In this document: positions 1 to 9,141 of the stretch, in pieces
Layout of the letters: every line of letters starts with the position of its first letter
Position numbering within the stretch: position 1 is the stretch's first letter
IMG/VR virus record: IMGVR_UViG_2872185964_000011
Direction: 5' to 3' (one strand)
DNA from: a virus
Taxonomy: Duplodnaviria > Heunggongvirae > Uroviricota > Caudoviricetes
DNA: 40,519 nt
Notes under the pieces: model-generated
What the model was told of the DNA's origin: nothing
The model's database searches: none
What the model saw: only the letters and a program-made list of their open reading frames with translations
Position numbers and translations under genes: made by a program

Positions 1-270
<270 letters not shown>

Positions 271-579
271 TTACCGTTAAATCATTTTAAAATCAGTAAG
301 TTGTATCGAGTTTGTATGCTTTACTGTCATTAACTTACTGTATGTTGATCCAGTGTATTTAACCTTGATAAACTCAGTCCAGTAACACAAAGCCGCAACA
401 CATTGCATTTTGTCCCGTAGAAAAGACTTGTATGTGTGTGCTTGTTTTCTGCGCCTACGCAGATAAGGATTGAGAATGCCGCGCACTGTAACACATAATC
501 CGGATAGCCCCAATAATGACGATGTTTTAGCCGCATCTGAAAAATGGGACGCCTGTAAACCCCCTATACCAGCGCACAC

Positions 580-1872
580 ATGAAAATCTGTGTTGCTGCC
601 GCCAAAATCATCCTCGCTGCTTCCGGCGTGGCTCGCCGTTCCAAATACGAAAAAGAGAACTATCTCCGTATCGATTTCAGCAAAGCCGGTAAGGTTACAT
701 TTTACGCCGAGTTTCCAAAAAAGATGGGCCTCAAAGGTAAAAAGCTCGGCGAGTGGCCGGAGCTCGCTATCCAGCTGGCGCGCGAAAAAGCACTAGGTAT
801 GGCTGACGGTGGACTGCGGGCAGAGTCCGTACATGCAGCGCTGGAAATGTACCGGGATGACCTCAAAGCCAAAGTAGCCCGGCAGAAGCTGAGCCCGGAT
901 AGTTTCACAACCTACGGGGTGCGTATCGACCGGATTAAAGCAACGTTCGGCGAGCGCGAGGTGTTCAGCGACGTAACATACAGTCGGCTGGTGGAAGTGC
1001 TGGACGAGTGGATCTCCACTCGCTCGAACAATAACGCCCTGGAGTTGTTTGCCGAGCTCCGTCGGTTCTGGAAGTTCTGCGCACCTACTCTTTGCAACGG
1101 CCGCAATGTTGCCGCTAGTCTGCCAGATGATTATGTTTCCTCCCGCGTACAGAAACCTACCCCCACACGGCTTTTTACCGATATTGAATCAATCGCCCGA
1201 CTCTGGCTCAATGTTGCTGCCTGCACCTCTGTACACCAGAAGAATGCTGTTCGCTTCATGATCATCACTGGTGTTCGTCCGATTAATGTCCATAACCTGC
1301 GCTGGGACTACGTTCACGAGGAGACTGGCGAAATTGTTTATCCTGAAGGGGTTATCGGCATGCGAGGGGCTATGAAAACACAAAAGGCTTTCCGCCTGCC
1401 GATAACGCCTGAGATCCGGCGGATTATCGACGAGCAGAAAGCCTGGCGTGATTCAGTTCCTGAGTGCAACAGGGATTATGTATTTTTGCAGCCACGTGAT
1501 CCAATGCAGCCATTTTCAAAACGATCACTGGATAAGCTGGTGAAAACATACAGCCCGGACGGGGCTGTAAAAGGAATAAAACATGATGGGACTGTTAAAG
1601 GGAAAGACGGTGCATTTAATACGATGTGCCGTAAATTCCTTAAGAGCAATGTTATTGCCTTGATGAAGGAAAGAGGCTATTCCCGATCAGACCGAAGGGA
1701 AATCAGCCTCCTTTGCCTTCACCACTCCAGTAAGTCAGATGACCCGATGGCAGAACATTACGACTTTTCTGATGAGATTTTACAGGAAGAGATTGCGTTA
1801 AAGCGCGAAGCTTTCGAGGCTCACGAGCGGAGCATACTTGCGCAGGTGGCATTGCTACGGCGGCGAGGTTAA
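580..1872 (+). CDS. phage integrase, tyrosine recombinase (start uncertain; an in-frame GTG at 628 is an alternative)
   Basis: 430-aa ORF at prophage edge; C-terminal half has recombinase-like TGVRP, a Lys-containing hairpin region (GAMKTQKAFRLPI) and a C-terminal His/Tyr segment (LHHSSKSDDPMAEHYDF); N-terminus resembles arm-binding domain. Confidence 0.8.
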   Translation: MKICVAAAKIILAASGVARRSKYEKENYLRIDFSKAGKVTFYAEFPKKMGLKGKKLGEWPELAIQLAREKALGMADGGLRAESVHAALEMYRDDLKAKVARQKLSPDSFTTYGVRIDRIKATFGEREVFSDVTYSRLVEVLDEWISTRSNNNALELFAELRRFWKFCAPTLCNGRNVAASLPDDYVSSRVQKPTPTRLFTDIESIARLWLNVAACTSVHQKNAVRFMIITGVRPINVHNLRWDYVHEETGEIVYPEGVIGMRGAMKTQKAFRLPITPEIRRIIDEQKAWRDSVPECNRDYVFLQPRDPMQPFSKRSLDKLVKTYSPDGAVKGIKHDGTVKGKDGAFNTMCRKFLKSNVIALMKERGYSRSDRREISLLCLHHSSKSDDPMAEHYDFSDEILQEEIALKREAFEAHERSILAQVALLRRRG

Positions 1873-2069
1873 TACCGGCTGCGACACTTTTGAATAAAAG
1901 CGTCGACATTACGGCGCTCATAACGAACTACTTTTGCACTGAAACGAATTGGTGCCAGGATAGCCCGATGACGATGCTTAATATTCCACTCACATAGCGT
2001 TTTCTGTGTAATACCTAACTTTTGGCATACTTCATCCGGGGTGAGTAAATCGTCGGGTTTCTCGCTCAT
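1869..2069 (-). CDS. small HTH DNA-binding protein, excisionase/AlpA-like candidate
   Basis: 66-aa product MSEKPDDLLTPDEVCQKLGITQKTLCEWN... with HTH-like segment; ATG overlaps helicase stop (ATGA); adjacent and convergent to integrase. Confidence 0.55.
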   Translation of the reverse strand: MSEKPDDLLTPDEVCQKLGITQKTLCEWNIKHRHRAILAPIRFSAKVVRYERRNVDAFIQKCRSRY

Positions 2070-3459
2070 GCTATACCTCTCTTTTTCATGGCATTGAGCA
2101 GGATGTCCTGCACTGTTCGTTTTGAGTTGCGCCGCTCCATCACCATTTCGTCCATAGTGTCGGCGGCGATAATGTGGTGAATGAATACCGGGCGGTTGTG
2201 TCCGGCCTGAATCTGCCGGGTTGGCCCGATGCGTTCGATAATTTGTTGGTACTGCTCCAGATCCCACCAGTGCGAGAAAAACACCAGTATGTTTCCGCCG
2301 TCCTGCATGTTCAGGCCGTGGCCCGCGCTGGCTGGGTGTGCAAAGAGAACAGGAACCTTTCCTGAATTCCAGTCGCGCAGTGTCTGTGGATCCTGGTCGA
2401 GGTGACGACCGCGAGGGAATGCTTTAAGCAAGCGTTCAAGATCGTGTTTCCAGTGATAAGCAACCAGCACAGGTGCGCCAGCTGCTTCGGTCAGTATGCT
2501 GTCCAGCGCTTGTAGTTTGGTGTCATGCAGTTCTGACCAACTTCCGGTGTCGTCTGTGTATACTGCGCCACTGGCGATTTGCAGACATTTCAGTGTCTTT
2601 GCCGCGGCGTTCGGTGCTTCGATGCCTTCGCCATTCAGCTCGAGGAACATTTCCTTTTCCATTTCACGATACTGCTGACGGGCCTTCGGTGGCATATCCA
2701 CGCGGATTACGTTATGGATGGGGTCTTTGATATCGAACCAGTCGGCCGCATCCAGCGAGAGGGTTACATCGGCTAACGCTCGCTGTATTTCACCCTGTGA
2801 GTGAGCAAAAGGCTCCAGTTTGGTCCAGCTCTGCCCGGAAACTGTATCGAGTTGAACCAGCGTGAGGTAAACGCGCCGTAAGTGCGCCCGAGACGTTGCC
2901 CCTGGTCCACAAACCACGATTGTCCCCACAAATCTACCAGGCCGTTCGGTGCTGGCGTACCGGTGAGATTTATCCAGCGCCGGACATACTTATGCGCCAC
3001 TTTGCCCAGCGCCGCCGCGCGCTTACCACCACCGCGCAGCCGGAAGGATTTTAGCCGGGTGCTTTCATCTGGAATGACAGTACCGAACGGCCATCGTTCT
3101 CCCAATTCTTCAATCAGCCAGACAAGGTTATCGTAGTTGATGGTGAACACGCTTGCGTTGCTGTTCGTCAGCGCCATAGAGCGCGCTTTGGCATTACCAA
3201 TAATTGGCTGCACCTCGATATTGCGCAAATGTCCCCACTTCAGTGCTTCATCCGGCCATGTGCTGGCAGCCACGCGCAGCGGCGCGAGGACCAGTGCGGG
3301 GCATGTTTCTGCCCCTGCCATAAAGAGATCTTCCAGCGCAGTGAGCGTTGCCACGGTTTTACCCATTCCCATACCCGCCCAGATGTTGCCGCGCAGAATG
3401 TTAGTTTGGTGATTGATTATGAGGTTTTGATAAATTCTGGGGTGGAATATGCTATTCAT
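2066..3459 (-). CDS. SNF2-family DEAD/DEAH-box helicase, reading frame broken between about 2773 and 2929
   Basis: N-part has Walker A GMGMGKT and DEAH-box-like IPDEST; C-part continues in the -1 frame (LDTVSGQSWTKLEPF...); the two ORFs overlap by 157 nt. Confidence 0.75.
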
Positions 3460-3488
3460 TAATATACCTATGGTAGAATATGGTCACT

Positions 3489-3508
3489 TCTCTCTCTCTA
3501 TATATATA
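3489..3508 (+). repeat. dinucleotide repeat tract (TC)5(TA)5 just upstream of the RBS of the 3525 gene
   Basis: tctctctctc tatatatata read directly; GGAGG RBS at 3515-3519, ATG at 3525. Confidence 0.8.
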
Positions 3509-3524
3509 ACTAACGGAGGCGGGT

Positions 3525-4322
3525 ATGCCCCTGGCGAAAATATTTACAAAGCAAGTTTCTTTATTAACTATGTTTTCAGCGTTAGCTTATGCGATGGCAT
3601 ATTCTTTTCAGAAAGGTGTTGCATCGTATTATGGCTATCCAGACCTTTTTATTAAAATAGACTTAAATACGCTATTGTATTCGGCTGTGTGGCTTTTGTT
3701 TTTTAGTTTTTTATTTCTCGGCGCCTTATATGCGGCGTTGATGTTTGATTTGAAAGGGAAATATTATGTTCCATTTATTGTATTTATAGTTGTTATGCTA
3801 ATGGCTAATATTTGTATAATAGGATTTCATTGGCCTTTTGGTTATTTCTCCGAAACTTCTGTGATGAGTGTTCAGGATATTTTATTATTTGCTATGCTTT
3901 TGTTGAATTATCACAATGTGGTGTCCATGCCAATCCATAGTAAGAGACACGAACATCATATGGAGAGCATTAGAAAATTTGGGAGGCTTGCAGAGTATAA
4001 GAACGTATTTTATTATATCGATTTAAAAATCCTAAAGTCAGCTTTTCCTTTAGGGGTGATAACGTTGTTGATATTGAGCTATACATTCGGGAAGGTTACT
4101 GCATTTAAAAATAACGAATATTATATGGTAGATGGTAGTAATACTAAAGTGTTGCTCAATTCATTTGGTAGTGGTTTTGTTGTTGGTGATTGTGAGTCAA
4201 ATAGCGCAAAATTTGAATTTGTTAATGATTTAAAAGGGATGAGATTCACAATCATGTCCTCTAAAAAGGAAATAGCTAAATTAAAAGAGTGTTTCGAAAT
4301 ACGTGTTAAAAATACGGATTAA
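3525..4322 (+). CDS. hypothetical multi-pass membrane protein; AT-rich accessory gene antisense to the replication operon
   Basis: 265-aa ORF with strong RBS; about four hydrophobic helices in the N-terminal half, soluble C-terminal ~90 aa; visibly AT-rich compared with flanks; no family recognised. Confidence 0.6.
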   Translation: MPLAKIFTKQVSLLTMFSALAYAMAYSFQKGVASYYGYPDLFIKIDLNTLLYSAVWLLFFSFLFLGALYAALMFDLKGKYYVPFIVFIVVMLMANICIIGFHWPFGYFSETSVMSVQDILLFAMLLLNYHNVVSMPIHSKRHEHHMESIRKFGRLAEYKNVFYYIDLKILKSAFPLGVITLLILSYTFGKVTAFKNNEYYMVDGSNTKVLLNSFGSGFVVGDCESNSAKFEFVNDLKGMRFTIMSSKKEIAKLKECFEIRVKNTD

Positions 4323-4334
4323 AGCATAAGTCTT

Positions 4335-4547
4335 TTATCCTTTATTGCGGCTTAAAATAATGGCCTCCAGATTTTTGCTATCCAGCACCACTACGGTAAA
4401 GCCCAGCGCGCGCAACCGTCCGTGTTCGCGCAACTGGTCAGGCCGTGGTGGCTTGCCGGGGGATACGAACTTAAAGGCAACCCCGCCAGCCTTTTTTACT
4501 TCAGCGACGAGGTGCTTTTCGATTAGGTTTTCACGTTCATAGGCCAT
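4335..4547 (-). CDS. VRR-NUC domain protein, C-terminal part only in frame
   Basis: 70-aa ORF; segment AFKFVSPGKPPRPDQLREHGRLRALGFTVVVLDSKNLEAI resembles the C-terminal half of VRR-NUC nucleases; expected N-terminal PD motif region is not in this frame. Confidence 0.5.
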   Translation of the reverse strand: MAYERENLIEKHLVAEVKKAGGVAFKFVSPGKPPRPDQLREHGRLRALGFTVVVLDSKNLEAIILSRNKG

Positions 4548-4740
4548 TAGCTTTCGCCTTCCTGCTTTTTGCGTTTCTTCATGCAGATAGCGCAGTTCTC
4601 AGGATGGTCATGCCATTCATCAATCCTGATACCTATGAACATCCATTTTCCGCATAGTGATATGGCTTCCCCGAATTAAAGAAATGTGCTTTTTTTGACA
4701 GAGCGGGGAACCCCCAACCCTTATTATCGATATTAGACAT
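4547..4740 (-). CDS. small ORF with strong Shine-Dalgarno, frame-interrupted; either the 5' part of the VRR-NUC gene or a separate small Cys/His protein
   Basis: AAGGAGGTG then ATG at 4740; 35 codons to a TAG, then the -1 frame continues (...IDEWHDHPENCAICMKKRKKQEGES) to a TAA overlapping the VRR-NUC ATG. Confidence 0.25.
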
Positions 4741-4867
4741 CGTCCACCTCCTTACGCTTTTCGCGCATGTTCTGCATCAGACAAAAATCAAACCGACGTT
4801 CGCTTTGGCCCAGACCTGCATCGCCCGGTCGTACCCGCCGGACTGTTCAAGGTGCAAAGCCTCCCGC

Positions 4868-4892
4868 ACAGTCCGGTAATAAAGCGGACTGT
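4868..4892. promoter_or_regulatory. perfect 8-bp inverted repeat ACAGTCCG-9 nt-CGGACTGT in the intergenic region downstream of the TIR-like gene
   Basis: read directly; no adjoining T-tract, so more likely a protein-binding site or RNA structure than a terminator. Confidence 0.3.
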
Positions 4893-4927
4893 CCCGGTAT
4901 TTAAATGACATAGGGTTTTTATTCCCA

Positions 4928-4951
4928 AATAAAAAACCCCGCGATGCAGGG
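4928..4951 (-). terminator. rho-independent terminator candidate following the TIR-like gene
   Basis: on the minus strand CCCUGC-AUC-GCGGGG hairpin (one G-U pair) followed by UUUUUUAUUU. Confidence 0.5.
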
Positions 4952-4974
4952 TTGTAATCAACAATAAGGGGTAA

Positions 4975-5736
4975 TTACGAGGAAGCGTTAGCTATTTGAG
5001 CTTGTGTAAATTCGAAACCAGAATTTTGTAACCGTTGCACTAGACGAGGAACTGTTTCACGTACATGGTCGTTGAAATTCAGATACAAAATCCCGTTAGC
5101 ATCAGAAGGCTGTTCTAGGTGCTGTTTCTGAAGGATTGCTACATTGCTGCGCCCTAAGGACGAAAGAAGCATACCCATCTCGAGTACAACGTTCTGTCTT
5201 GCGCGGGGTTGGATTTCTGCTTCACCGGCGCGCTTTGAGTATCCCATATCATCAGGTGTCAAAAGAACAATCCCGAAACGGGTAGCAGTTTGTCCTTGCC
5301 CAATTTCACGTTCAAGCTCTTCAATAATGGTGAGTCCAGTCCCTCCCGTATTCTGCAAAATGAAATGGTCTGGTAATCCAAGTTTATGAAGGATTAGCTC
5401 AAGTTGCTCCTTTGCAGTATGGTCATGGCCGTGAACAATGAATATCTTTTTGGGGAGCTCAGATGGCTGTTCTACGGCTAGTGGTGTTGCCGTGGGCGGC
5501 GTTCCTAAATGGGTCATTATTGCAGTTTCAACATTGGGACGTTCTTGAGGGTTACCTTGAAACTGAATGGTCCGGGTGGTGTAAAGGTTAACAATTACGC
5601 CATTCGTTAAACGATAGCAGTCACAAGTCTCACGCTGTTCGTGGGAAAAATTGGTGAACCCACACTCCCTCAAAAAGTCAGGAAAAGTTTCTCTCGGGTA
5701 TGGATAGGTGATCGGCATTTCAGTTAGTTCCTGCAT
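4975..5736 (-). CDS. TIR-like domain protein: C-terminal TIR-like (predicted nucleotide-binding, NADase-type) domain fused to an N-terminal ~95-aa domain of unknown function
   Basis: C-terminal half KKIFIVHGHDH...GIVLLTPDDMGY...RARQNVVLEMGMLLSSLGRSNVAILQK...PSDANGILYL matches from memory the bacterial TIR-like family consensus including the conserved Glu; own RBS and downstream terminator. Confidence 0.6.
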   Translation of the reverse strand: MQELTEMPITYPYPRETFPDFLRECGFTNFSHEQRETCDCYRLTNGVIVNLYTTRTIQFQGNPQERPNVETAIMTHLGTPPTATPLAVEQPSELPKKIFIVHGHDHTAKEQLELILHKLGLPDHFILQNTGGTGLTIIEELEREIGQGQTATRFGIVLLTPDDMGYSKRAGEAEIQPRARQNVVLEMGMLLSSLGRSNVAILQKQHLEQPSDANGILYLNFNDHVRETVPRLVQRLQNSGFEFTQAQIANASS

Positions 5737-5800
5737 AAGTATTGTTCCTTTAATTTACTCGAATTCAGCATGTCGCCATAGCTCGATAAGGTGAGTTATA

Positions 5801-7864
5801 TCAATCTTTTTTGTAGTGGTACGCCTCAAAACCGCCAGCGTTCAGTGGGATATCGGGCGCCCATTCGGGGTCAGTGGAGAGAAGCGCGGAAAGCGCTTTA
5901 TCGTTGAAATCTTCTGTGTCAGGTGCTTCGGTGATCACCTCGTCGTGTACCGTCAGCACAATGCTGTAACCGGCATCTTCGATAAGCGGCATGTTTCCGG
6001 CCAGAATGTCGCGGGCGGCCGCCTGGGTGATGTTCTCCACCAGCTTTCCGCCGTAGGTTTTGAGTCGTTGCCATTTACGCGAATAAGAGTTAACCCCCAT
6101 GTAGGTGATATTCCCTTTTTCGATAACCGGAGACGGGTAGCATACAGCGCGTCCGGATGGTAGCTGTATGCGCAGCCACGCGCCATCGCGGCGGATTTTA
6201 AGATAACCGCAATACAATGTTTTTTGCGGTGTGGCGATTGCAGTGCGGACGGTGCGCTCCAGTTCGTACCAGAAATCACAGGTCGCGGGATGCGCCCGGC
6301 GCCAGAGACGTTTAAGTGAGTCGCAGGCGATAAATACCCGTTCAGAAAGCCCGTAGGTTGACTTGCGTTTAACCGATTCGTCGTACCAGCTTTTCGCCTC
6401 GCGGATAACATCGCGGGGAATGTTTGGTAGTGCGGCGTTCGCCAGCTCGTCGAGATCGAGACCGTAAACCAGTGCAAAAGTGATGAAGGCCGACACACCA
6501 CCACCATAACCCAGACCGAGTTCCATGACTTTACCGATCTGACGCATGTGTTTATCAACATCATCTGGTGCAATATCGAAAGCTTTTGCATACGCCAGTT
6601 TATATAAGTCCGGACCCGTTCCGGCGTCGTACTCTCTGAATGCATTCAGTTTCCATTCTTCTCCCGCCAGCCATGCCAGCATACGGCCTTCAATGTTCGA
6701 CAAGTCACTTACCACCAGCTTTTTGCCTGTTGGCGCGATAATGCAGCCACGTAACGCTGAACTGGTTAGTTCCATGATATTGTCAAACAGCAGGTCTGCA
6801 CATCCGGCTTTCAGTGCTTCGATGCCTTCGTCTATTTGTTCCTGTTTTAGTGAAGGGCGGGGAAGGTTCTGGGGCTGGAATAGCCGTCCGGCCCAACGAC
6901 CGGTACGTGACGCCCCGCAGAACTGTAGCGTACCGCGTAAGCGCCCGTCGTGGCTTACGCCTTTCATCAGTGCCTTGTATTTACTGGTGCTGGTAGTACT
7001 GGCCTGCAGGCGGATAGCCAGCAGTTCTTTCACGGCAGATGGTAAATCGGGGTCGGCAATACGACGTTCCAGAGTACTGCGTTGCATGTCTGGTAGCTCC
7101 ACACCGTAGGATTCAACAATGTGCTTAATCAACGCGTCTCGTTGTGTGGCTGCCTGCACTTCGCCATCAGTCATTTCCTGTGTACGCTTTGCCAGGCGCT
7201 TTTGTTCCTGGTCTACCGCGTCGATCGCAGCGCGTGCGAGTTCCACGTCCATGCAGACGCCCCGGTCATTGATCTGCTGATCACGATGCCAGAGCGCCAG
7301 TTCTGTCCCCTGATAATTCCACTTCGGCAGACGTTTATAGACTTCGCGCATTGCCTCGATATCCAGTCCGGCGTAAGCAACAAAGCGCCGCCATTCTTCC
7401 GGGTGGGTTTTGCTGGTGGCCCGGCGCAGTTTGCTGTTTTTCGGGCGTGGCTTACAGAACAGCTGGATCAGCGCTTTACCTTCTTTGTCCTTCGCTTTGT
7501 CTTGCGGGACGCCTAGTACTTCGCAGAGTTCCCCCAGAGACCCCGGGAGACCGTGCGCCAGCGCCTGCACCATTGTGTCGCGCCAACGTTCGACTGGCGG
7601 TGCCAGGCGCGGCATTGCATAACGCAGAACGGTGCGGTCGAAGTGAGAGTTATGGAAATAAAGCTGGGTTTCAGGGTCTGCGATTGCTTCGTATAAGCCG
7701 TGTGGAATACCACCACCGGCAGTGATATCCCACACGTTTACTGGCCCGTCGTTGATAGCCCATGCGAAAAGCATCACTTCAACGCCTTCGGCATACGCAT
7801 GGGTACCGTTCGTAATAGGGATTTCGCAATAGGTTTCCAGGTCGCCCCATAGTATATTGGACAT
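5801..7864 (-). CDS. family A DNA polymerase with N-terminal 3'-5' exonuclease domain
   Basis: 687 aa; exo motif [11 protein letters not shown]; polymerase motif [16 protein letters not shown], motif [17 protein letters not shown], motif C VHDEVI. Confidence 0.85.
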
Positions 7865-7910
7865 GTGTTTACCTTGGTTTTTATTCTATTAACTGATTAA
7901 AAGTTTAATT

Positions 7911-8540
7911 ATGCATATGATCCAATACTTGATTGACCATACAGAGCATCTGGAGAAAATAGCTGGATATATTTTTTCATGTTTGATTGTTATGGGAGTC
8001 TGGATAAGAAAGATCATTTTTAATTATAAGTATAAAGAGCCTAAATATGTCAAGAAGTTAATTTTATATTTAGTTAAGTATGAACGTTATCTGGATGAGG
8101 AGGATAAGAGTGCCATAGAAAAAAGAATAAATGATAAAATTATTCGTGATGCGCTGAAATTGCAATCCTCTTATAACCGAAGAGATGTTATTTACATTTG
8201 CAATAGATTAGAAAAAAGACAGTATATAAATCAGTTGATTAAGCTTCAGAATTATATAGAGAAAGATAACGGAGTGTTTTTTATTAATGTTGATTTTTCA
8301 GGTTTTTTATTTATTATTAGTCGTCTGTTTTCCTTTCTGTGTTTTGTGCTGTTTACCCTTTTTTCTATTATCTGCATTATTTCCATAGGGCAAAATGAAG
8401 GCCTTTTAAATTATCTTGTGTATATGGTTATGATAATAGTTTTAGAGACTGTTGGTTTTTGGATGTATGATACTTTCCCGTCTAAGAAAAAGATCTGTGA
8501 ACTAAATAAAGAATTGAGAAAGATTAAGATTCCTGAGTGA
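7911..8540 (+). CDS. hypothetical membrane protein; second AT-rich accessory gene antisense to the replication operon
   Basis: 209-aa ORF; one N-terminal and two C-terminal hydrophobic helices flanking a charged Lys/Glu-rich middle; very AT-rich; no family recognised. Confidence 0.55.
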   Translation: MHMIQYLIDHTEHLEKIAGYIFSCLIVMGVWIRKIIFNYKYKEPKYVKKLILYLVKYERYLDEEDKSAIEKRINDKIIRDALKLQSSYNRRDVIYICNRLEKRQYINQLIKLQNYIEKDNGVFFINVDFSGFLFIISRLFSFLCFVLFTLFSIICIISIGQNEGLLNYLVYMVMIIVLETVGFWMYDTFPSKKKICELNKELRKIKIPE

Positions 8541-8558
8541 TTATACGCCTAATCAGTA

Positions 8559-8577
8559 GCCCGGTGTTTAACCGGGC
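8559..8577. terminator. GC stem-loop between convergent genes (GCCCGG-tgtttaa-CCGGGC)
   Basis: perfect 6-bp inverted repeat read directly; no clear T-tract. Confidence 0.3.
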
Positions 8578-8592
8578 GTCTATGAAGTAGGG

Positions 8593-9141
8593 TTAAATTA
8601 GTGCTTCAGCATCAGCACCTTCGCTGATATCGTCGAAATCGTCAGCGCTTGCCACTCCGCCGCCAGCGAATGCATCGCCGTCTCGCAGGAACTGGACTCC
8701 GCCGAGTGAGGCATTAATGCGTTTACCGAAATTATTGTCCTGTGCCCAGATATCGATAACGGCGTTTACATAGCACCCTGCATAGGGACGTCCGTCAGCC
8801 TGAATAAGTGGCGAACGATCGCGATCAAGAACAGCTGGGCGCGCTTTGTTAGCAGCATTCAGGAAGAAATTACCGGGGAAGCCTTCATACTCTGCTTTTT
8901 CATCACCATCATGCAGGCACAGATTGAGTTTTTTCTCCAGCTGGTTATAAATGGGCTCCCACTTCTCTCCCCATTTTTCCTTCGCTACCTGCTTCATAGC
9001 TTTACGGATTTCTTCCAGTTGTGGGTGTTTGGGAGACATTAAAAATACTGCGGAGAAACGCGGATCGCCTTCGCCGTTTACAGTTTTAGCTTCAAACAGA
9101 GACGGGAAGGCCAGACGAACATTGTTCAGCTTCAGTTTCAT
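8593..9141 (-). CDS. phage ssDNA-binding-like protein (DUF2815-type, from memory)
   Basis: 182 aa starting MKLKLNNVRLAFPSLFE, acidic C-terminal tail (DDFDDISEGADAEALI) typical of SSB-like proteins; position between nuclease and polymerase. Confidence 0.55.
   Translation of the reverse strand: MKLKLNNVRLAFPSLFEAKTVNGEGDPRFSAVFLMSPKHPQLEEIRKAMKQVAKEKWGEKWEPIYNQLEKKLNLCLHDGDEKAEYEGFPGNFFLNAANKARPAVLDRDRSPLIQADGRPYAGCYVNAVIDIWAQDNNFGKRINASLGGVQFLRDGDAFAGGGVASADDFDDISEGADAEALI

Follow-up and report, generated by a model that had tools for sequence, protein, structure and literature searches.

A TIR-like gene with a TBP-like N-terminal domain, carried as cargo in an Escherichia coli prophage: a candidate single-protein defence system

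The locus and its variation among prophages

The DNA analysed here (the window, 40.5 kb) carries a TIR-like gene in the early and replication gene block of an E. coli prophage, directly behind a family-A DNA polymerase gene that is also annotated as DNA polymerase in E. coli IAI1 (Table 1). The open reading frame reported in a first-pass annotation is genuine, and we add its strand, which that annotation did not give; PHROG 16442 matches the 253-aa product over its full length. The gene had been placed between the polymerase and a VRR-NUC gene: the polymerase does lie directly upstream, but a remnant of an ANR-family regulator gene and a small ORF intervene on the downstream side. Several genes nearby in the window are damaged, with the ANR gene frameshifted, a 75-bp deletion in the VRR-NUC gene, and a split helicase gene.

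Table 1. Features of the locus, in window coordinates
Feature	Position	Strand	Basis or remark
Prophage family-A DNA polymerase (flank, outside the system)	5801..7864	minus	PF00476, E=3.4e-14; IAI1 annotation
Inserted cargo cassette, 898 bp	4915..5812	none	Homology breaks relative to TIR-less prophages
Ribosome-binding site AAGGA	5746..5750	minus	9 nt before ATG; read from sequence
TIR-like gene ORF	4975..5736	minus	ORF list; ATG start; 253 aa plus stop codon
TBP-like domain, aa 8-78; putative sensor	5503..5715	minus	beta-alpha-beta4-alpha
Variable low-confidence linker, aa 79-95	5452..5502	minus	pLDDT and column entropy
Cap12/PycTIR-type TIR-like domain, aa 96-253; putative NAD+ glycohydrolase effector	4978..5451	minus	PF10137; PDB and Foldseek matches
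Codon of Glu186 (VVLEMG), predicted catalytic glutamate	5179..5181	minus	Aligns with Glu of SfSTING "VVFEFG"
Codon of Asp212 (PSD), equivalent of SfSTING D110	5101..5103	minus	Alignment pairs PSD with PTD
Intrinsic-terminator-like hairpin (AACCCTGCATCGCGGGGTT) and T-tract	4925..4953	minus	Terminator scan
ANR-family regulator remnant (flank)	4777..4911	minus	IAI1: "ANR family transcriptional regulator, frameshifted"
VRR-NUC gene	4335..4547		Downstream of the TIR gene

Comparison with the TIR-less prophages of E. coli A16 and ETEC-2264 shows homology ending at window positions 4914 and 5813. The cassette so delimited comprises the terminator, the ORF, its 64-nt leader, and the 3'-terminal 12 nt of the polymerase gene, and has a GC content of ~0.46 vs. 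~0.55 in the polymerase. The two cassette-free prophages have an intact 71-aa ANR gene 6 nt after the polymerase. We find the cassette in 37 of 5,426 E. coli genomes, adjoining the prophage polymerase in every case, and in only 37 of the 159 genomes that have the same polymerase region; the ORF is intact in these 37 genomes and in three induced phages, at 97.5-100% DNA identity. Surveyed across prophages at this position, the gene is accessory, and not the conserved core replication component that the first-pass annotation had named as the counter-explanation; it is real cargo of an E. coli prophage. In a Serratia prophage with 74% identity in its polymerase, a TIR homolog occupies the equivalent position, ancient alleles of the TIR gene have been swapped beside nearly identical polymerases, and the alternative cargo of other prophages in the same variable region includes DUF4406 and methyltransferase genes. 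The stretch between the polymerase and VRR-NUC genes also stands out as a hotspot for cargo in this enterobacterial prophage family, which is widespread.

The proposal that the gene forms its own transcription unit holds for the translation start and the 3' end, but not for the promoter. Its ribosome-binding site is found in an identical aaaggaaca-ATG arrangement in the Serratia homolog. The terminator hairpin, placed earlier at 4928-4951, reads on the coding strand from 4953 to 4935 and is followed by TTTTTATTT, 22 nt past the stop codon in the terminator scan; the Serratia homolog has a differing hairpin terminator at the matching relative position. A promoter scan returned no sigma-70-like site upstream of the gene on the coding strand, inspection of the 64-nt leader by eye gave no convincing promoter, and the Serratia leader holds only a weak TTGCTG-17-TATTTT. 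Since the gene lies within the co-oriented early and replication block, directly after the polymerase, its expression in the lysogen is putative.

The two halves of the protein

The motifs listed in the first-pass annotation (IFIVHGHD, LLTPDD, RARQNVVLEMG, and PSD, together with the N-terminal string YPYPRETF...QFQGNP) are all present, and a profile-HMM check bears out its view of the C-terminal half as TIR-like with a conserved Glu: PF10137 (CAP12-PCTIR_TIR) matches aa 97-222 with E=2.9e-31 and 108.4 bits (gathering cut-off 24.7 bits), covering profile positions 1-118 of 119. Sequence matches of this half in the PDB are Cap12 TIR-STING (7un8, 9lmq) and PycTIR (8jsj), and the best Foldseek matches are TIR-STING structures 9lmq and 9lmr. 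In the predicted model of the full-length protein, the TIR half is of only moderate confidence (pLDDT 50-85). R180, N182, E186, and D212 align with SfSTING R78, N80, E84, and D110, given an inferred 8-residue numbering offset between the SfSTING PDB chain and the published numbering (PMC9402430). In SfSTING, E84 is catalytic and D110 completes the active site of the neighbouring subunit (PMC9402430). All four residues are conserved in 62 homologs, with E186 and D212 invariant, and the TIR-like half is, from its sequence, probably an NAD+-depleting enzyme upon oligomerisation.

The N-terminal domain had been described as unrecognised, which no longer holds: it shows a TBP-like beta-alpha-beta4-alpha fold, closest to the N-domain of RNase HIII and to the NRD of RnlA/LsoA. 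Sequence similarity to both is marginal. A PDB profile search pairs the domain with RNase HIII 3vn5 at E=0.053, only 3 of 62 family members match DUF3378 (PF11858), with the best E of 0.02 lying below threshold, and the RnlA/LsoA family PF15935 gives no match above its gathering threshold in this domain. Conserved residues Y52, T54, T56, G61, and R/K42 are spaced as the RNA/DNA-hybrid contacts of Ta-RNase H3, in a register inferred from spacing through an Aquifex homolog, as a 27-aa query aimed at the 4py5 sequence retrieved only 3vn5. Among the Ta-RNase H3 contact residues compared (Y43, S45, S47, G52, R32, E27, and H28), E27 and H28 have no identified equivalents in the domain. The residues kept across phyla form a single polar face; the domain as a whole is not basic (6 K+R vs. 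10 D+E), and at two positions the E. coli allele departs from the family, with Cys replacing the otherwise conserved Gln40 and Arg replacing Gly55. By analogy with the RNase HIII domain, it is possibly a binder of RNA/DNA hybrids. The linker that joins it to the TIR half has pLDDT below 50 at aa 80-94 and, of all parts of the protein, the highest column entropy (2.98 bits).

An exhaustive HMMER search for homologs of the N-terminal domain, which replaced an uninformative word-indexed profile search (only 25 short proteins), yielded 887 proteins and shows that the domain is also fused to other proteins. It occurs on dCTP-deaminase proteins in PADLOC (P0222, 617 aa, E=7e-173, and five fragments), and further fusions involve DUF1653 and a protein with a transmembrane tail. 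A paper on the TBP superfamily does not describe a fusion of a TBP-like domain to TIR.

The two halves differ sharply in rate of change. On average, family members are pairwise 37% identical in the N-terminal domain and 73% identical in the TIR half; the respective dN values are 0.52 and 0.095 at saturated synonymous divergence, and the N-terminal domain evolves ~5 times faster. The TIR half is under strong purifying selection. Saturation of synonymous sites precludes an estimate of dN/dS between allele groups, and we therefore make no claim of positive selection.

Family context and relation to known defence systems

The protein is a member of PDC-S35, with which it shares a two-domain architecture of roughly 250 aa: the PADLOC model PDLC05003 matches aa 10-253 over profile positions 3-245 of 245 with E=6.8e-109. 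Three other PDC-S35 sub-models (PDLC05004, 05005, and 05007) match the TIR half only and, judging from these matches, represent other N-terminal domains. PDC-S35 is among 145 bioinformatic candidates, and its proposal was based on the occurrence of members within type I RM, BREX, or DISARM loci (Payne et al. 2024, bioRxiv 10.1101/2024.01.29.577857); the present locus lies in a prophage replication module, with no defence system around it. A full-text literature search for PDC-S35 and for RefSeq WP_001157067 found no paper, domain analysis, or mechanism, nor did we find in the literature any paper tying TIR defence to RNase H or hybrids; neither TIR nor Cap12 is mentioned in the DefensePredictor preprint. 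The family itself is already catalogued, as a PADLOC candidate, and what is new here is the ~5-fold rate gap between the halves, the dCTP-deaminase fusions of the N-terminal domain, and the linkage to RNase HI described below.

The search for homologs of the protein gave ~2,700. The family is patchily distributed over many phyla and mostly non-phage, in chromosomal islets near RM or TA genes and in integrative elements. Homologs adjoin HsdS/HsdM at two loci (L088 and L090), one lies in an integrase-flanked islet next to genes for an Mrr nuclease and a PemK toxin, and another within an integrase/TrwC element. Clustering of 437 neighbours at 76 loci identified no universal partner gene; the only recurring neighbours are an RNase HI subgroup and a few RM subunits. 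The RNase HI gene lies immediately 3' of the TIR gene in 10 of the 76 loci, from three phyla and often with overlapping stop and start codons; the present locus has no linked RNase HI gene. We also considered a conserved small upstream partner, which was rejected since an 86-aa ORF in V. cholerae is unrelated to a 70-aa ORF in another lineage.

The protein belongs to neither CBASS nor Pycsar nor Thoeris. The earlier remark that no cyclase or partner gene is adjacent extends to the whole window, where PADLOC and Pfam scans of 47 ORFs detect none. CBASS is rejected as there is no CD-NTase cyclase in the operon among these 47 ORFs and no STING or SAVED sensor, with the NCBIfam Cap12 equivalogs NF050171 and NF050172 reaching 34.8 and 30.5 bits vs. 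a cut-off of 450 bits. Pycsar is rejected as there is neither a PycC cyclase nor a cNMP-binding domain, the PADLOC model of PycTIR matching the TIR half only (E=1e-8), and no Thoeris model is among the PADLOC matches of the protein or of the remaining window. Cap12 (TIR-STING and TIR-SAVED) and PycTIR do share with it the PF10137 TIR-like subtype, the aligned Glu and Arg/Asn, and the trans-acting Asp; they differ in having STING, SAVED, or cNMP-binding sensors and a cyclase in the operon, in place of which we find an N-terminal TBP-like domain and no cyclase.

An architectural analogue is SpbK from the Bacillus subtilis element ICEBs1, an N-terminal sensor joined to a TIR NADase that is activated by a phage portal protein (PMC11984713). 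Both proteins are similar in length (267 aa in SpbK vs. 253 aa here), in the position of the catalytic Glu (E192 vs. predicted E186), and in domain borders (1-94, 95-115, and 116-267 vs. 8-78, 79-95, and 96-253), which is an architectural analogy only. SpbK is borne by a mobile element and causes abortive infection, and the protein described here is borne by a prophage. The SpbK sensor binds the portal protein, whereas the sensor here resembles the RNase HIII N-domain or the RnlA NRD; no model named SpbK is among the PADLOC matches of the protein.

The relatives of the N-terminal domain are joined to different partners. In RNase HIII (DUF3378; PDB 4py5 and 3vn5) it precedes an RNase H catalytic domain rather than a TIR-like one, and the RnlA effector (RnlA/LsoA, PF15935) is a HEPN RNase under antitoxin control, whereas here the effector is TIR-like and there is no antitoxin gene. 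The RnlA NRD has been pulled down with RNase HI, and a direct RnlA-RNase HI interaction was not detected in vitro. The same TBP-like domain is carried by a subset of the dCTP deaminase defence proteins (PDLC02373). Their effector comprises a kinase-like region and a deaminase, and what it depletes is dCTP instead of NAD+; the PDLC02373 model itself has a different N-terminal region of ~140 residues where the TBP-like domain would be.

Proposed function and alternative readings

We favour, with moderate confidence, a single-polypeptide sensor-effector that would protect the lysogen by abortive infection, in which the N-terminal domain senses, the TIR NADase acts, and an RNA/DNA hybrid is the preferred trigger. 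Full-length membership of PDC-S35 makes defence by a single-protein sensor-effector the reading with the most support, with a putative anti-phage function. The Cap12-type TIR-like domain would have NAD+ glycohydrolase activity, absent in the monomer and switched on by TIR-TIR packing, as in TIR-STING filaments; packing would be needed because the Asp212 of one subunit is predicted to complete the site around the Glu186 of its neighbour. The TBP-like domain may be the infection sensor, with a multivalent or polymeric ligand gathering the TIR domains. The preferred ligand would be an RNA/DNA hybrid or some comparable intermediate of replication or transcription that builds up in phage infection, with cellular RNase HI setting the activation threshold, and the main alternative ligand a phage protein or RNase HI itself; the trigger is thus possibly a hybrid, or the protein possibly acts through RNase HI. 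In either case, the lysogen, and hence the prophage, would be protected via abortive infection. An anti-defence function, also suggested in the first-pass annotation, found no supporting evidence.

The same TIR NADase could drive abortive infection with an N-terminal domain that recognises a phage protein or else host RNase HI, which would then be guarded or serve as an adaptor, so that the resemblance to RNase HIII is one of fold only; we regard this as possible, if unlikely. SpbK, of the same layout, binds the portal protein through its N-terminal region, and the RnlA NRD was pulled down with RNase HI. The acidic to neutral charge of the domain, the marginal sequence similarity to RNase HIII, and a fast evolution with discrete allele groups, which would fit an arms race with a phage protein, point the same way. 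Against it, the positions that are conserved between phyla make up a single polar face and share the spacing of the RNase H3 hybrid contacts, and a sensor of a single phage protein is not expected to be recognisable from Enterobacteria to Chloroflexota; as for RNase HI, nucleic-acid bridging would also fit a pull-down in which no direct interaction with RnlA was detected in vitro.

We consider it improbable that the gene serves the phage's lytic cycle in place of defending the lysogen, for example in replication or nucleotide metabolism, as a nucleotide or NAD-derived N-glycosidase, or as a counter-defence enzyme, expressed with the polymerase operon. Its co-orientation with the replication genes directly after the polymerase, the lack of a detected promoter, the shared position in the Serratia prophage with its 74% identical polymerase, and the DUF4406 and methyltransferase cargo found elsewhere in the variable region would all suit such a role, and TIR-like folds include nucleotide glycohydrolases such as MilB (PMC9402430). 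However, the gene is missing from most related prophages and is followed by a terminator, as is typical of a moron; its family is mostly non-phage, near RM or TA genes and on integrative elements, and was chosen by PADLOC for its embedding in defence loci; and the same N-terminal domain is fused to a validated class of defence effectors. Very improbable, in our view, is an orphan effector whose N-terminal domain is a small-ligand receptor for a diffusible nucleotide second messenger produced elsewhere in the cell, for example by a host CBASS, Pycsar, or Thoeris synthase, given that there is no cyclase in the window and none was seen among the examined neighbours of 76 other loci, that the domain lacks similarity to STING, SAVED, and cNMP-binding domains, and that the Cap12 equivalogs score 35 and 31 bits vs. 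the 450-bit cut-off. A decaying or silent passenger, currently functionless in this prophage, would agree with the damage to its neighbours (the ANR frameshift, the VRR-NUC deletion, and the split helicase) and with the missing promoter, and is nonetheless hardly credible for an ORF that is intact and nearly identical across 37 genomes and three induced phages, with very strong purifying selection on its TIR half and all catalytic residues retained.

More speculatively, the TBP-like domain may be a transferable module for sensing RNA/DNA hybrids (R-loops, primers, or replication intermediates) carried by two unrelated suicide effectors, with RNase HI as a rheostat. This broader idea, which we hold only tentatively, would comprise at least two effectors, the TIR NADase and the dCTP deaminase, and an RNase HI, translationally coupled or host-derived, that separates self from infection. 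If true, it would reveal a new class of bacterial immune sensing by nucleic-acid structure, and would offer a new reading of the unexplained RNase HI dependence of RnlA.

It is largely unexplained how infection is detected by single-protein TIR and dNTP-depleting effectors, and the locus provides a compact E. coli system, of one protein in 898 bp. For its putative sensor there is a related domain of known structure, the N-domain of RNase H3, which was solved on an RNA/DNA hybrid, and in other lineages RNase HI is a natural genetic partner. An entry in the PDC-S35 catalogue now yields specific testable predictions, namely hybrid binding, dependence on rnhA, and requirements at Glu186 and Asp212.

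A TIR-like gene carried as a cassette in the prophage replication module

The TIR gene lies in an apparently complete prophage that adjoins yfhL; genes for integrase, cI-like repressor, Q antiterminator, terminase, portal, capsid, tail, and holin are all present. Positions 4300-8600 are 99.8-100% identical to E. coli IAI1 and DETEC-P1056 and 97.5% identical in DNA to the induced phages vB_EcoM-606R2, -689R2, and -611R5, which encode the TIR protein at 98.4% identity. In the cassette-free strains A16 and ETEC-2264, the ANR regulator gene begins 6 nt past the polymerase stop codon, and homology between the window and cassette-free relatives breaks at 4914 and 5813, defining an 898-bp cassette in place of ~14 nt (GC ~0.46 vs. 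~0.55 for the polymerase). We find it in 37 of 5,426 complete E. coli genomes, always in single copy beside the polymerase, which amounts to ~23% of the 159 genomes with this polymerase region; in other genomes, the polymerase-to-VRR-NUC stretch carries an ATP-binding protein, DUF4406, YfbU, Ant, DUF7446, or a methyltransferase. A second TIR allele group occupies the same position in further E. coli strains and in Serratia. Between the two E. coli alleles, polymerase dS is 0.11, but synonymous divergence of the TIR genes has reached saturation, arguing for ancient alleles swapped as cassettes. One genome match (H37; E. coli FDAARGOS_943, NZ_CP065615.1) has an IS4-like ISEc60 transposase annotated between polymerase and TIR gene, a possible natural disruption or re-wiring of cassette expression.

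Features of the cassette and of neighboring genes
Feature	Position	Strand	Remarks
TIR gene	4975..5736	(-)	ORF list; 253 aa, ATG start
AAGGA ribosome-binding site			Sequence reading; 9 nt 5' of TIR gene ATG
Hairpin AACCCTGCATCGCGGGGTT, then T-tract	4953..4935	coding strand	Terminator scan; 22 nt past stop codon
SNF2/DEAD-box helicase	2066-3459	(-)	Split into overlapping ORFs 2066..2929 and 2773..3459
AT-rich ORF	3525-4322	(+)	
VRR-NUC gene	4335-4547	(-)	In-frame 75-bp deletion vs. E. coli IAI1 and DETEC-P1056
ANR gene	4733-4911		Frameshifted
AT-rich ORF	7911-8540	(+)	

All motifs quoted in the first-pass annotation are found in the TIR ORF. Its description of the gene as its own transcription unit stands only in part: the ribosome-binding site and a terminator-like hairpin are present, but a promoter scan finds no sigma-70-like promoter in the 64-nt leader on the coding strand.

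Neighboring genes show further irregularities. Compared with an 89-aa Serratia homolog, the window VRR-NUC lacks '...RRSVPDRLVLLPGGRAVFVECKAPGE...', the site of the conserved PD...E-x-K core, so the nuclease is probably dead. The helicase is one intact 464-aa gene in IAI1, to which window 1-4464 aligns with four gapped positions; together with the split helicase and the frameshifted ANR gene, this suggests either a decaying replication module or an assembly with indel errors. Within this module, the opposite strand carries the two very AT-rich ORFs (GC 0.28-0.34): the product of one, 265 aa long, has membrane-like segments and no family match, and that of the other, 209 aa long, matches PHROG 10579 (function unassigned there). 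At the same two positions, related prophages carry a DNA cytosine methyltransferase, three hypothetical genes, DUF4145 (Serratia), or Nmad5; the positions are two further cargo hotspots, and the AT-rich ORFs are possible defense morons. One ORF from 12159 onward has the IS1 InsA C-terminal domain (HTH_Tnp_IS1, E=3.8e-31), placing an IS1 element or fragment somewhere in the prophage. Weak PADLOC matches in the window are to RmrA (1.5e-6) and HTH_VI (6.8e-6).

A putative NADase half and a TBP-like N-domain

The TIR-like similarity of the C-terminal half, noted at the first pass, is borne out by profile search, with PF10137 (CAP12/Pycsar effector TIR domain) covering aa 97-222 at E=2.9e-31 (108 bits vs. 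a 24.7-bit cut-off) and PADLOC TIR effector and PycTIR models matching at E=1e-8 to 1e-12. The only sequence-related solved structures in the PDB are Cap12 TIR-STING (7un8, 9lmq) and PycTIR (8jsj), and the fold search proposed earlier (Foldseek with the AlphaFold model) ranks TIR-STING first. R180, N182, E186, and D212 align by HMMER with SfSTING R78, N80, E84, and D110, the 8-residue offset between PDB chain and published numbering being inferred. In SfSTING, R78 and N80 touch the phosphodiester and ribose, E84 is the catalytic glutamate, and D110, from the opposite TIR, completes the active site within the filament (Morehouse et al., PMC9402430). Across 62 family members, R180, E186, and D212 are invariant and N182 nearly so. 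With the trans-acting Asp conserved, activity probably depends on TIR-TIR packing, as in Cap12, and we infer that this half is a putative NADase.

The N-terminal region, not recognized at the first pass, proves to have a TBP-like fold: AlphaFold models aa 8-78 as beta-alpha-beta4-alpha with pLDDT ~90, and the top PDB matches of its profile are RNase HIII 3vn5 (E=0.053) and LsoA residues 107-167, the NRD (E=0.064). Sub-threshold Pfam matches are to RnlA_toxin (7 of 62 members) and DUF3378 (3 of 62), and the homolog P0113 has a precomputed PF15935 match. Sequence, at a marginal level, and structure independently indicate the same two families, the RNase HIII N-domain and the RnlA/LsoA NRD. Family-conserved residues (Q40, R/K42, N50, Y/F52, T54, T56, Q58, Q60, and G61) alternate along strands beta2-beta4 and therefore lie on one exposed sheet face. 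In Ta-RNase H3, the same face binds the hybrid via Y43, S45, S47, the G52 amide, and R32, and RNA/DNA hybrids are the sole ligand bound by the isolated domain (PMC4132731). The spacing of Y52-x-T54-x-T56-x4-G61 equals that of these contacts, in a register taken from the Aquifex alignment. As caveats, the N-domain has no basic character, and the Gln at position 40 and Gly at 55 seen in most relatives are replaced in the E. coli allele by Cys and Arg.

Family distribution, sensor exchange, and linkage to RNase HI

The TIR protein belongs both to PF10137 and to the PADLOC candidate defense family PDC-S35, whose model PDLC05003 matches aa 10-253 at E=6.8e-109; it also matches PHROG 16442 (function unassigned there). 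PDC systems are 145 phage defense candidates, proposed on the grounds that members lie within BREX, DISARM, or type I RM loci (bioRxiv 10.1101/2024.01.29.577857). The family thus has a catalogue entry but is functionally uncharacterized, and our literature search found no paper naming either PDC-S35 or the RefSeq protein. A homolog search yields 2,703 relatives; the ~250-aa two-domain architecture is shared by almost all of the 120 that score best. A scan of species-representative genomes finds relatives patchily spread over 237 genomes, from Proteobacteria, Acidobacteriota, Verrucomicrobiota, Chloroflexota, Bacteroidota, Campylobacterota, Cyanobacteria, and other phyla. Members in V. cholerae (L006-L009) belong to an integrase/TrwC mobile element, with an 865-aa SMC/AAA_13 ATPase nearby. 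Those of the L012-L015 lineage have an Mrr_cat nuclease, a TPR protein, and a DUF2281/PemK toxin-antitoxin pair as neighbors, within an islet flanked by integrase.

The N-domain behaves as a putative swappable sensor. Mean pairwise identity is 37% in the N-domain vs. 73% in the TIR half. Further PDC-S35 sub-models cover the window protein in its TIR half alone, which implies that this effector also comes with different N-domains. With the N-domain profile as query, an exhaustive HMMER search retrieves 887 proteins at E<=1e-3. Among the 87 longer top matches that were scanned against Pfam, 20 carry PF10137, six the PADLOC dCTP-deaminase defense model, two DUF1653, and one a transmembrane C terminus, and ~10 are alike at their C-terminal end, in a ~160-aa form whose second domain is unassigned. 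The dCTP-deaminase proteins are P0222 (617 aa, E=7e-173, with the Pfam deaminase domain) and five fragments (P0215, P0183, P0279, P0246, and P0220); in these fusions, the N-domain stands in for the first ~140 positions of the dCTPase model. Small proteins of ~150-165 aa (P0244, P0187, P0195, P0198, P0200, P0229, P0270, P0280, and P0285) join the N-domain to a ~80-aa C-terminal module that ends in ...LLKRVK.AL...GL.V..V.DS...V... and has no Pfam or PADLOC match; this family could be a stand-alone sensor or regulator.

Clustering of 437 neighbors from 76 family loci reveals no universal partner gene. In 10 of the 76, however, RNase HI (PF00075; E ~1e-43 to 1e-47 in the five tested) is the next downstream gene on the same strand: three loci from Verrucomicrobiota (L021, L062, L063), five from Chloroflexota (L075, L082, L084, L087, L095), one from Acidobacteriota (L086), and one from a Candidatus lineage that groups with the Chloroflexota loci (L080). 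These loci span three phyla, their remaining flanking genes differ, and they fall in at least three places in a neighbor-joining tree of TIR halves. Stop and start codons overlap (TGATG or TAATG) in eight of the ten, implying translational coupling of the TIR homolog and RNase HI. In L082, L084, and L080, the gene after RNase HI encodes a Schlafen AlbA_2/HATPase_c_4/Fic-like_C protein. The RnlA NRD associates with RNase HI in vivo, direct contact was not detected in vitro, and RNase HI is needed both for RnlA activation and for RnlB inhibition of RnlA (PMC5308261). Structure, gene neighborhood, and the RnlA precedent together tie this type of N-domain to RNA/DNA hybrids or RNase H. No rnhA is linked to the E. 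coli cassette, whose protein would have to rely on host RNase HI.

Candidate function and alternative readings

The best-supported candidate function is that of a one-protein sensor-effector that aborts infection through NAD+ depletion: the TBP-like N-domain would detect an infection trigger, and the Cap12-subtype TIR would then deplete NAD+. We have modest confidence that the trigger is RNA/DNA hybrids or an RNase HI-dependent signal. The layout is analogous to that of SpbK, which has an N-terminal sensor (1-94) and a TIR (116-267, catalytic E192) in one protein (PMC11984713), but the window protein differs in its Cap12-subtype effector and TBP-like sensor. A rival is that the trigger is a protein; that of SpbK is the phage portal protein (PMC11984713).

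Other rivals concern the role of the protein. It may be an orphan second-messenger receptor; against this, the earlier remark that no cyclase or partner gene is adjacent holds across the whole window, where PADLOC and Pfam ORF scans find none. As a component of CBASS, Pycsar, or Thoeris it was rejected, the defining partner genes and sensor domains having been tested and found absent. It may serve the phage's own lytic cycle; the gene has the same orientation as the replication genes. Or the gene may be a silent passenger. As a caveat to the sensor-effector reading, no promoter was found and the gene is co-oriented with the replication genes, so that expression in the lysogen is only presumed. 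Between allele groups of this prophage slot, dN is 0.52 in the N-domain vs. 0.095 in the TIR half, and this low value despite synonymous saturation (pS ~0.73 between the two E. coli alleles) indicates strong purifying selection on the TIR half.

What is new in the sensor-effector reading is the type of sensor, which has no earlier description in a TIR NADase effector of abortive infection such as this one is predicted to be, and its main value is that hypotheses about the sensor are now testable.
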